A stretch of 780 nt of DNA from Escherichia coli (GTDB taxonomy: Bacteria; Pseudomonadota; Gammaproteobacteria; Enterobacterales; Enterobacteriaceae), in NCBI RefSeq assembly GCF_003334255.1, contig NZ_QOWU01000188.1; one strand, written 5' to 3'. Below, piece after piece: positions 1 to 780 of this stretch. The position numbers and the translations under genes were made by a program. The notes below the pieces were generated by a model that saw only the letters and a list, made by a program, of their open reading frames with translations, ran no database searches and was not told the origin of the DNA. Position 1 is the stretch's first letter. Every line of letters starts with the position of its first letter.

Positions 1-331
1 CAAGAAACGAGGGCAGGGCGCGAAGTTCTGCCATGGCTTCCGATACCACCGTGGGCGGATTCTCGCGTTTGTGCTTCGCCAGTTTTTCCAGTCTGACCCG
101 ACGCTCTTCGTCGTGGTGAAGATACGAATTAATTCGCTTGCCTTCGTCTGTGTTTGTCAGGAAGGAGACGGTTTCTTCATCCAGTCTGGCATCAATGCGA
201 ATGTCCTCGTTGATGTAGCTCTGAATGGCCTGGCGTAATGCGGTTGGTTGTGCTCTGCCGAACGTTTCAGGATCGATAACCGGTAGCGGTGCGTTCCACG
301 GGTACGCCAGCTGTGCATTGCGGTCACTCAT
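1..331 (-). CDS. Hypothetical protein, N-terminal part only (at least 110 aa: MSDRNAQLAYPWNAPLPVIDPETFGRAQPTALRQAIQSYINEDIRIDARLDEETVSFLTNTDEGKRINSYLHHDEERRVRLEKLAKHKRENPPTVVSEAMAELRALPSFL...); 3' end lies beyond the left window edge
   Basis: Hand translation of the minus strand from the ATG at 331..329 gives an uninterrupted frame of 110 codons to position 1. It is absent from the ORF track because it has no stop in the window. GGGGAG Shine-Dalgarno at 345..340 with an 8-nt spacer. The start overlaps the stop of the upstream ORF (ATGAGTGA, 331..324). The in-frame upstream stop is at 433..431, and the only other in-frame candidate start (GTG at 400..398) has no Shine-Dalgarno motif. Confidence 0.7.
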   Translation of the reverse strand, partial: MSDRNAQLAYPWNAPLPVIDPETFGRAQPTALRQAIQSYINEDIRIDARLDEETVSFLTNTDEGKRINSYLHHDEERRVRLEKLAKHKRENPPTVVSEAMAELRALPSFL

Positions 332-743
332 GCGTCGTACTCCCCGCCAGTGACCTCCTGAAACGCCCGCGGTACAGCACGAGAAGGCGCTGGTATTCAC
401 CGATAAAGTCTTCTGCGGTGTATATGCCTTTCACGGCCACGCTGTGGGTTGTCATTTCCAGAACCAGTGCCATCTCTGACGATGACCAACTGATGGCGGT
501 ACTGTCGGTGCCGTTGATGTGAAATAAACCAAAGCCATCACCGTCACCTTTCACGTCCACGCGGTAACGACCGTCAACGGTGAAGGAGAAATCCCCGTAT
601 GTGGTGATGCTGCGGGCGGCCTGTTTACAGGCGCGGCGGTAGTAGTCGTGCCAGTTGTTCAGGCGGGAAGCCAGCAGGGGATCCACCGCCCACATCCAGT
701 TAAAAAAGTCCTGAATATCTGAAAGTCCCTTAACGCTCTTCAT
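324..743 (-). CDS. Hypothetical protein, 139 aa (MKSVKGLSDIQDFFNWMW...RRSLAGSTTHE); function unknown
   Basis: Complete ORF from the supplied track, ATG at 743..741 and TGA stop at 326..324. GGAGG Shine-Dalgarno at 753..749 with a 5-nt spacer before the ATG. Codon usage is enterobacterial-like (CTG, CGC, GGT, GAC, AAA preferred). The antisense frame is low-complexity and R/S/T-rich, consistent with this strand being the coding one. The same frame stays open upstream to the window edge at 780, so a start further upstream cannot be excluded. Confidence 0.78.
   Translation of the reverse strand: MKSVKGLSDIQDFFNWMWAVDPLLASRLNNWHDYYRRACKQAARSITTYGDFSFTVDGRYRVDVKGDGDGFGLFHINGTDSTAISWSSSEMALVLEMTTHSVAVKGIYTAEDFIGEYQRLLVLYRGRFRRSLAGSTTHE
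340..345 (-). promoter_or_regulatory. Ribosome-binding site (GGGGAG) for the ORF starting at 331, embedded in the 3' end of the upstream ORF
   Basis: Minus-strand sequence reads CGGGGAGTACGACGCATGAGTGA, placing GGGGAG 8 nt upstream of the ATG, inside the last codons of the 743..324 ORF. Confidence 0.55.
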
Positions 744-748
744 GAGAA

Positions 749-753
749 CCTCC
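749..753 (-). promoter_or_regulatory. Ribosome-binding site (GGAGG) for the ORF starting at 743
   Basis: Minus-strand sequence reads CCGGAGGTTCTCATG, placing GGAGG 5 nt upstream of the ATG. Confidence 0.6.
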
Positions 754-780
754 GGTAACAGACGTGCGGAAGCCTCCCGC

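Follow-up and report, generated by a model that had tools for sequence, protein, structure and literature searches.

The c4-icd-ant immunity of phages P1 and P7 is the basis of the C4 antisense RNA family in Rfam (RF01695), and in these phages C4 is processed from the transcript that it controls. Related arrangements, in which an open reading frame (ORF) runs over such an RNA, occur in P4 and Gifsy-1. In P4, the eta ORF contains CI and seqA as well as a constitutive promoter (Forti et al. 1999, as relayed in PMC10111431). According to the same source, full-length Eta arises only from an upstream promoter, in coupling with the gene before it, translation of eta prevents termination, and a phenotype is known for Kil, the C-terminal portion of Eta (PMC10111431). 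In the P4 sequence, the eta ORF (8168..8812, the old 'cI product') encloses matches to isrK/seqA (60.8 bits) and C4/CI (74.9 bits); eta overlaps the start of epsilon by 8 nt, epsilon overlaps that of orf151 by another 8 nt, and alpha, the replication gene, comes next. In Gifsy-1, the isrK sRNA with its terminator is followed by orf45, which covers the C4-like RNA STnc1160 (Hershko-Shalev et al. 2016, PMC4825925). Conservation of orf45 is seen in its nucleotides but not in its amino acids; the ORF overlaps anrP with its stop, and anrP requires translation of orf45 over the C4-like RNA (PMC4825925).

No report linking C4 or isrK with P2-like phages was found in the literature searched. The DNA analysed here, a stretch of 780 nt from Escherichia coli (hereafter, the window), is part of a P2-like prophage and lies directly upstream of the replication endonuclease gene. 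Among 5,426 complete E. coli genomes, 65 matched the window with a best identity of 99.6%; every match was prophage-borne, and the annotation beneath all of them reads 'hypothetical protein | replication endonuclease'. A megablast of the window against the phage collection revealed no near-identical deposited phage. The locus of strain EC2 (L001), in which the genes are oriented on the plus strand, was used as a reference, and a window position equals 5781 minus the L001 position. Relative to L001, the window carries two substitutions and lacks one nucleotide at window position 368. Sequence past position 780 was taken from such relatives (99.6% identity) and not from the window's own genome. 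The comparison set comprised 96 related loci (66 distinct sequences) with identities of 72-100%, mostly 80-90%, and the isrK-C4-epsilon module was present in approximately 1,237 of the 5,426 complete genomes. The features of the window and of the reference locus are presented in Table 1.

Table 1 Features of the window and of the reference locus (window positions unless L001 is named)
Feature	Position	Strand	Basis or remark
Replication endonuclease (P2 gpA type), 5' part	1..331	-	PGAP in matching genomes; Phage_GPA Pfam matches in relatives
139-aa ORF, phrog_3237 family, C-terminus frameshifted from ~368	324..743	-	PHROG E 8.6e-50
TAA at which the long ORF ends, overlapping the 139-aa ORF by 14 nt	730..732	-	GTTAAG kept in all 138-aa-type sequences
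3' end of the long ORF (probably eta/Ash-type), 16 sense codons AGGFRTSVTGGSHEER plus stop	730..780	-	Frame open in relatives
TGA of the ATGA motif	740..742	-	Ends no gene in the window's lineage
ATG start codon of the phrog_3237-family gene	741..743	-	First possible start in frame; PGAP start
Shine-Dalgarno sequence (SD) GGAGG	749..753	-	5 nt ahead of the ATG
Last 37 nt of the 68-nt spacer from the epsilon-like gene to the 139-aa ORF	744..780	-	L001 annotation and sequence
Hairpin, 3' strand GCGGGAGGCUUC	769..780	-	5' strand past the window edge, L001 4980..4992
73-aa epsilon-like gene	L001 4748..4969	+	PGAP
138-aa gene	L001 5038..5454	+	PGAP; 68-nt gap after the 73-aa gene
gpA-type replication endonuclease	L001 from 5451	+	PGAP

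The first-pass annotation had pointed out that upstream of the ATG at 743 all three minus-strand frames are open to the edge of the window, and our translations from positions 780, 779 and 778 agree with it. The frame from 780 reads AGGFRTSVTGGSHEER* and ends at TAA 732..730, overlapping ATG 743 by 14 nt; the frame from 779 reads REASARLLPEVL-M and continues into the 139-aa ORF (743..324); and the frame from 778 reads GRLPHVCYRRFS* and ends at TGA 742..740 in an ATGA motif. Taken alone, the openness of three frames is a statistically weak observation: stop triplets were absent from all frames in 21.7% of shuffled 37-mers and in 27.5% of the real 37-nt windows of L001, and for the 56 stop-free nucleotides found in the relatives, the chance figure is 14.4%. 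The extension of the sequence upstream, as proposed in that annotation, separates the frames. In the relatives, the TGA frame meets a stop soon beyond 780 (L001 4979..4981), while the TAA frame stays open far beyond it, for 374 codons in L001 (3927..5051). The own frame of the 139-aa ORF and the TGA frame are open by chance, and the TAA frame is the real tail of a long ORF. The earlier idea that a third coupled gene ends here was therefore broadly correct, in the TAA frame, although the long ORF is not a conventional gene and its protein sequence is not conserved. We had at first viewed this frame as a spurious ORF over RNA genes; this view was abandoned once the frame was found to be open in every relative.

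On its way to the window, the long ORF crosses isrK (Rfam; L001 4494..4568, 64.1 bits with a gathering score of 50), C4 (RF01695; L001 4604..4691, 82.1 bits with a gathering score of 45) and then the entire epsilon-like gene in its +1 frame. isrK carries a terminator. The presence of isrK and C4 inside the frame explains the matches of residues 164-290 of the translation to PHROG 'transcriptional regulator' families. The 73-aa gene is a homologue of P4 epsilon ('derepression'): its product is 32% identical to P4 epsilon over 50 residues (E 8e-9), and its relatives match PF25738. A promoter-like site identified by its consensus only, TTGCCA-18-TACATT (L001 4458..4487), reaches to 7 nt upstream of isrK and is the sole site of this kind in L001 4380..5100. 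In most contexts, the long ORF starts at a conserved ATG located 57-60 nt upstream of isrK, while in the L001 type, the start is an ATG at 3945 with a GGAG SD, 19 nt past the stop of a DUF4406 gene. A further in-frame AUG lies at the 5' end of C4 (L001 4608) and is out of frame in the lineages that read C4 otherwise; the ORF has 147 codons when counted from this AUG and up to 368 when the upstream ATG is taken as its start.

The RNA cassette within the long ORF looks functional, as indicated by covariation between the C4 loop and its target. Complementarity of the loop to the epsilon-like SD is seen in each of the 29 distinct covarying loop/target combinations, with pairing energies of -26.2 kcal/mol for cognate versus -17.8 kcal/mol for non-cognate partners; the z value of C4 against the epsilon-like SD region is -3.17 versus +1.19 against the spacer in the window. 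The targeted SD belongs to a gene in another frame than the long ORF. The epsilon-like gene begins with ATGG in 97 of 97 sequences, which yields TGG and no ATGA stop in the long frame, so that the long ORF runs through epsilon to the next gene. There it closes 4-14 nt into the gene in every downstream module type: the overlap measures 14 nt at the present locus but only 4 nt (ATGA) in deletion variants and the P88 type, compared with 8 nt in P4. In a distant relative (L099), the ORF encloses isrK and C4, and one nucleotide separates its stop from the next ATG.

The likeness to P4 concerns several features at once. In both cases, isrK/seqA and C4/CI are enclosed on the same strand by a long ORF, which has 197-214 codons in P4 and 206 in relatives of the present locus; its start adjoins the end of the preceding gene upstream of the internal promoter, its stop lies on the start of the next gene, and downstream there is first an epsilon homologue and then a replication gene. 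Some of the translations also resemble Phage_ASH, which may reflect conservation of the RNAs. There are differences as well. The host here is a P2-like (helper-type) prophage, with a replication gene of the gpA type and not alpha; P4 eta stops in epsilon, whereas the long ORF here crosses the epsilon-like gene from end to end in the +1 frame; C4 targets the epsilon-like SD and not an in-frame nested kil; and the gene that follows the epsilon-like one is unrelated to P4 orf151. With Gifsy-1, the locus shares an ORF over a C4-like RNA after isrK, conserved in nucleotides but not in amino acids, with its stop on the next start. However, orf45 has 45 codons and ends with AUGA on an antirepressor gene, whereas the ORF here has 147-368 codons, covers an additional complete gene in another frame and terminates with TAA 14 nt inside the phrog_3237 gene, which has a strong SD of its own and no antirepressor match and whose coupling to the ORF would be a prediction. 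As in P1 and P7, as these are described, the loop of C4 can pair with the ribosome-binding site of the first small ORF downstream, and the two covary in a way that determines specificity, but the downstream genes here are epsilon-like and phrog_3237 instead of icd and ant, and the enclosing long ORF is P4-like.

These comparisons raise a central question: is the openness of the long frame selected, or is it a by-product of what lies beneath it? We hold with moderate confidence that positions 780..730 of the window mark where a P4-type RNA-immunity leader meets the following gene within the early/replication operon of a P2-like prophage, and that the TAA-frame tail belongs to an eta/Ash-type leader ORF whose translation probably serves the transit of ribosomes. 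Judged by the precedents of P4 eta and Gifsy-1 orf45, the passage of ribosomes along the long ORF, and not its product, would be what matters. On transcripts from the upstream promoter, this transit would stop the RNA structures from acting and would protect the C-rich RNA from Rho, and the long ORF would then hand ribosomes to the start of the phrog_3237 gene and, via it, to gene A. Transcripts from the internal promoter would be unprotected and would be silenced by the pairing of C4 with the epsilon-like SD. The main rival, which we consider unlikely, is that of a plain spacer with a ribosome-binding site: the TAA-frame ORF would be an untranslated by-product of ancestry, GC-rich RNA genes and overlapped codon usage, and the gene would use its own GGAGG.

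Two observations are in keeping with a by-product: stop-free runs of 37 or 56 nt are common enough (14-27%), and the probability that a mutation within isrK and C4 creates a stop is only 0.008-0.009. At the scale of the whole ORF, open stretches of 181-378 codons were found in the +1 frame in 96 of 96 loci, against only 3-28 codons in the +2 frame. Under null models that are crude in that recombination inflates the event counts and that RNA and protein constraints are only partly modelled, no stop-creating change was observed in the long frame versus ~12 expected from the minimum number of substitution events placed at random, and tree-based simulations on the 52 indel-free sequences left all leaves open in 0 of 300 runs at both 100% and 35% of the events and in 5-6 of 300 at 15%. 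Five control frames were calibrated (observed versus expected, for example, 22 versus 20.7 and 23 versus 24), which makes the zero difficult to attribute to a by-product. When changes were counted in the consensus context, six stops were found versus 12.3 expected, and all six alleles carry a second change in the same codon; such double changes, which avoid the stop, also argue against a frame that is of no consequence. Few sites allow a stop to be created synonymously with respect to epsilon, most of them being invariant ATC or GTC codons, and at the sole informative site (L001 4951), the codon is CTC or CTT and never CTG or CTA. Although the null models are crude and the sequences related, the openness tests point the same way and favour stop avoidance beyond ancestry.

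One additional piece of evidence is provided by insertions and deletions. Those that are not multiples of three occur as compensating pairs, which means that C4 would be translated in one frame in some lineages (IMAGRTGPTSVGP...) and in another frame in others (NYGGAYGADFGRAGF...), before the lineages return to a common frame; compensated frameshifts of this kind speak against a by-product. Upstream of isrK, the long ORF of the L001 type runs codon-aligned antisense through a minus-strand gene, which is marked as coding by a periodicity of 86/63/109. Of the frames of a gene, the codon-aligned antisense one contains the fewest stops, and this would help a by-product to stay open; however, two alleles of this stretch that are 53% identical are both open, for 189-191 codons. 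The position of the stop on the next start in at least four spacer/module variants is likewise hard to reconcile with chance, and P4 eta and Gifsy-1 orf45 are tested precedents for an ORF of the proposed kind (PMC10111431 and PMC4825925).

Several observations count against the ribosome-track reading. No codon periodicity was seen in the frame of the long ORF, the 5' part of the ORF is lost in one locus (L089), another (L096) carries an uncompensated 17-nt insertion with the frame still open, and RefSeq/PGAP lacks a long-ORF annotation in the closest genomes. The missing periodicity and the omission by PGAP, together with the strong SD at ideal spacing ahead of the 139-aa ORF, are what a by-product would predict.

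Another important question is whether the sequence of the encoded protein matters, that is, whether the ORF ending at TAA 732..730 encodes an Ash/Eta/Kil-like regulator or toxin. We regard this as quite improbable. Phage_ASH (PF10554) matches residues 16-108 of the 206-aa ORF of one relative (L007; i-E 2.2e-5). Of eight translations, among them P4 eta, four reach E <= 0.001 (best, 8.3e-23), while a Pfam search of the 368-aa translation of L001 gave no match. PHROG 'transcriptional regulator' families match as well, some pipelines call the gene, and a phenotype is known for P4 Kil as the C-terminal portion of Eta (PMC10111431). However, both the Pfam and the PHROG matches are confined to the translated isrK-C4 stretch and may therefore reflect conservation of the RNAs, and this very stretch is read in two frames by different lineages. 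In the overlap with epsilon, the variable columns are distributed over the epsilon codon positions as 31/32/53, which identifies epsilon as the protein-constrained frame and leaves the long ORF most variable at its own second codon position, contrary to what a constrained protein would show. The C-terminal tail moreover varies between module types, and MAFFT sets the P4 Kil portion against the C-terminal tails largely as terminal gaps, as judged from a multiple alignment only.

A broader proposal, to which we assign slightly less than an even chance, is that a family of P88/Xuanwuvirus-like P2-like phages carries a P4-type cassette before gene A, in which an eta-like ORF, extended by loss of the ATGA, may have become a pure ribosome track that hops frames over C4, runs antisense through an inserted gene and links upstream early transcription to the replication genes. 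If this is true, a natural ORF would be selected for being translated, and not for its product, over two sRNA genes and a full protein gene, and the CI/seqA immunity logic of P4 would also operate in P2-like helper-type phages, upstream of the replication gene. The 'Ash family protein' and several PHROG 'transcriptional regulator' families would then largely reflect translated RNA genes. The locus also poses an annotation problem, as gene callers differ in choosing the long ORF or the nested epsilon-like gene: in near-identical DNA, some of them call a Phage_ASH ORF of 205/206 aa that overlaps the following gene by 14 nt, and others the nested 75-aa derepression gene. A 62-aa 'hypothetical protein' annotated antisense over isrK and C4 is probably spurious.

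The narrower question raised in the first-pass annotation, namely where the gene in the window begins, has an ordinary answer: the phrog_3237 gene starts independently at 743 with its own SD, as that annotation had favoured. No start codon precedes this ATG in its frame, and the full-length close homologues share the same Met. The proposed check of GGAGG and ATG in relatives showed that both are kept, with GGAGG in every spacer of the 138-aa type and AGAGG, GGAGG or GCGAGG in the other module types. Since the SD is strong and no significant structure sequestering the SD or the AUG was found, translation of the 139-aa gene does not need coupling. The ORF itself stands, but its length of 139 aa does not represent the family, because it results from the 1-nt deletion near 368; relatives encode 138 aa with another C-terminus, and the C-terminal tail of the window ORF is unique among its homologues.

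That the 139-aa ORF might be the C-terminal part of a longer protein reading through in its own frame has next to no probability: this frame is open for 56 codons upstream of ATG 5038 in L001, where it is closed by TGA 4867..4869, a 1-nt deletion in one locus (L026) joins the long ORF to it and some database proteins are longer, but the 56 codons contain no ATG, GTG or TTG and overlap the epsilon-like gene, the PHROG profile match begins only at residue 7, all 33 close homologues are <=140 aa, every full-length one beginning with MK(S/N)VKGLSD, and the remote homologues have 127-145 aa, so that the absent start codon and the short homologues with the same Met refute the reading. The longer database proteins were set aside individually: P0034 is a duplication fusion, P0042 is an assembly product full of indels, and P0043 is an unsupported start call whose extension reaches no upstream gene.

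An epsilon-like or other upstream gene ending at TGA 742..740 and coupled by the ATGA overlap is just as implausible, since the motif exists and its TGA is the genuine stop of the long ORF, overlapping the start, in P88-type relatives and in the 11-nt spacer-deletion variants (L008 and L076), but in the window's lineage the TGA frame is closed at both L001 4967-4969 and 4979-4981, which refutes the ATGA reading there. This frame is that of the 73-aa epsilon-like gene, whose stop is the TAA at 4967..4969; the TGA at 4979..4981 is a second stop. The two lie 68 and 56 nt ahead of ATG 743, and past the second one, 19 open codons remain in L001 with one GTG as the sole start candidate. The annotated upstream gene thus ends 68 nt before the start, which is not the arrangement of an ordinary ATGA-coupled gene pair, and the coupled gene end suggested earlier for this frame falls away.

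The protein encoded from 743 has few relatives: only 18 were found among 1.84 billion representatives, mostly of 127-145 aa. The 138-aa protein gave no match in Pfam or NCBIfam, and a fold search of the PDB with its AlphaFold model (pLDDT 79.8) returned nothing significant (best E ~1). A relationship to P4 ORF151 was considered and rejected, as the proteins have no similarity. The 138-aa gene has a distant homologue in the 121-aa gene of P88 (22% identity, E 7e-9), which indicates that the gene order isrK, C4, epsilon-like, phrog_3237-like and gpA is conserved.

The spacer that precedes this gene is homologous between both downstream module types, and the epsilon-like gene ends 32 nt past the edge of the window. 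No promoter-like or terminator-like site was found on its coding strand, and neither C4 (z +1.19) nor isrK (z -0.69) showed special complementarity to the part within the window; these values indicate that the window spacer is not a second antisense target. Over approximately L001 4680..5020, the mRNA strand is C-rich and G-poor (skew, -0.22 to -0.33), a composition that would be compatible with Rho loading and is not evidence for it. The stability of the spacer fold did not differ significantly from that of shuffled sequences (z -1.75). The MFE fold includes a conserved hairpin spanning L001 4980..5012, for which RNAalifold gave 11 pairs. One of these pairs is fully compensatory (A-U to G-C, 8 versus 8 sequences), several other changes are wobble-compatible, and the 3' strand is invariant within the 138-aa type.

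The long open reading frame (ORF) of the P4 eta/Ash type, which crosses isrK, C4 and the epsilon-like gene, starts in the prophage type of L001 (the related reference locus, strain EC2) at an ATG preceded by a GGAG Shine-Dalgarno (SD) sequence, 19 nt past the DUF4406 gene. From there it passes antisense through the phrog_6315 gene on the minus strand, in codon alignment with it, and it is open in both alleles of this stretch, although these are only 53% identical. At the start of the epsilon-like gene, all 97 sequences carry ATGG, which in the long-ORF frame reads TGG (Trp, 'TPWQT'), one base away from an ATGA stop/start overlap. In P4 the overlap at the epsilon start is 8 nt, and in the distantly related locus L099 a stop is followed by 1 nt and then ATG. 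The other end of the long ORF is shifted by indels in the spacer that precedes the 138-aa gene, the counterpart of the 139-aa ORF: a 1-nt deletion in L026 fuses it to the 138-aa frame (343 codons), and with an 11-nt deletion in L008 and L076 it stops at the ATGA. In no case does it end upstream of the SD of the next gene.

Features discussed, with their coordinates
Feature	Locus	Position	Strand
phrog_6315 gene	L001	3900..4364	minus
Stretch of the long ORF with two alleles	L001	3927..4493	
Long ORF start (ATG)	L001	3945	
isrK-C4-epsilon-like module	L001	4430..4962	
Translated isrK-C4 stretch; phrog_821, 995, 6928, 3960, 29966	L001	4434..4815	
62-aa PGAP protein	L001	4499..4687	minus
C4 RNA variable loop	L001	4634..4662	
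Epsilon-like SD region	L001	4716..4750	
Epsilon-like start (ATGG)	L001	4748..4751	
1-nt deletion	window (L001)	~368 (5413)	minus
139-aa ORF (phrog_3237)	window	324..743	minus
Tandem duplication	L002	3494..4880	

The isrK-C4-epsilon-like module was found in 1,237 of 5,426 complete E. coli genomes, and its homology ends where the epsilon-like gene ends; the spacer and 138-aa gene of the window's type were present in only 65. Judged from this difference in distribution, a mosaic boundary lies just past the window edge. The C4 loop and the epsilon-like SD region, both outside the window, covary perfectly in 29 distinct combinations, which implies many immunity specificities among E. coli prophages.

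With 18 representatives in 1.84 billion proteins, phrog_3237 is a very small family, and in all contexts seen its gene lies between the immunity cassette and a gpA-type replication gene. The fold predicted by AlphaFold (pLDDT 79.8) consists of two helices, four strands and two helices, and had no match in the PDB. Compared with L001, the window carries a 1-nt deletion (CGCGCGGCG to CGCGGGCG), which may be either a natural frameshift or an error in sequencing. It replaces the C-terminal ...YRAAFQxxTxGE of the ORF by a unique tail, ...YRGRFRRSLAGSTTHE, and turns the ATGA overlap with gene A into ATGAGTGA.

A 62-aa 'hypothetical protein' called by PGAP is exactly antisense to isrK and C4, had no family match and is probably a spurious call. 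The translated isrK-C4 stretch is matched by Pfam Phage_ASH (PF10554) and by five families in PHROG, of which four carry the label transcriptional regulator or repressor; their conservation may be driven largely by that of the RNA.

In the related locus L002 (strain SCU-172), a stretch that runs from isrK and C4 through the epsilon-like gene and the spacer into the 5' part of the 138-aa gene is tandemly duplicated. The first copy of the 138-aa gene, which is truncated, continues in frame into the second copy of the long ORF, and this fusion is called as a 280-aa protein (P0034, one of the longer database homologues).
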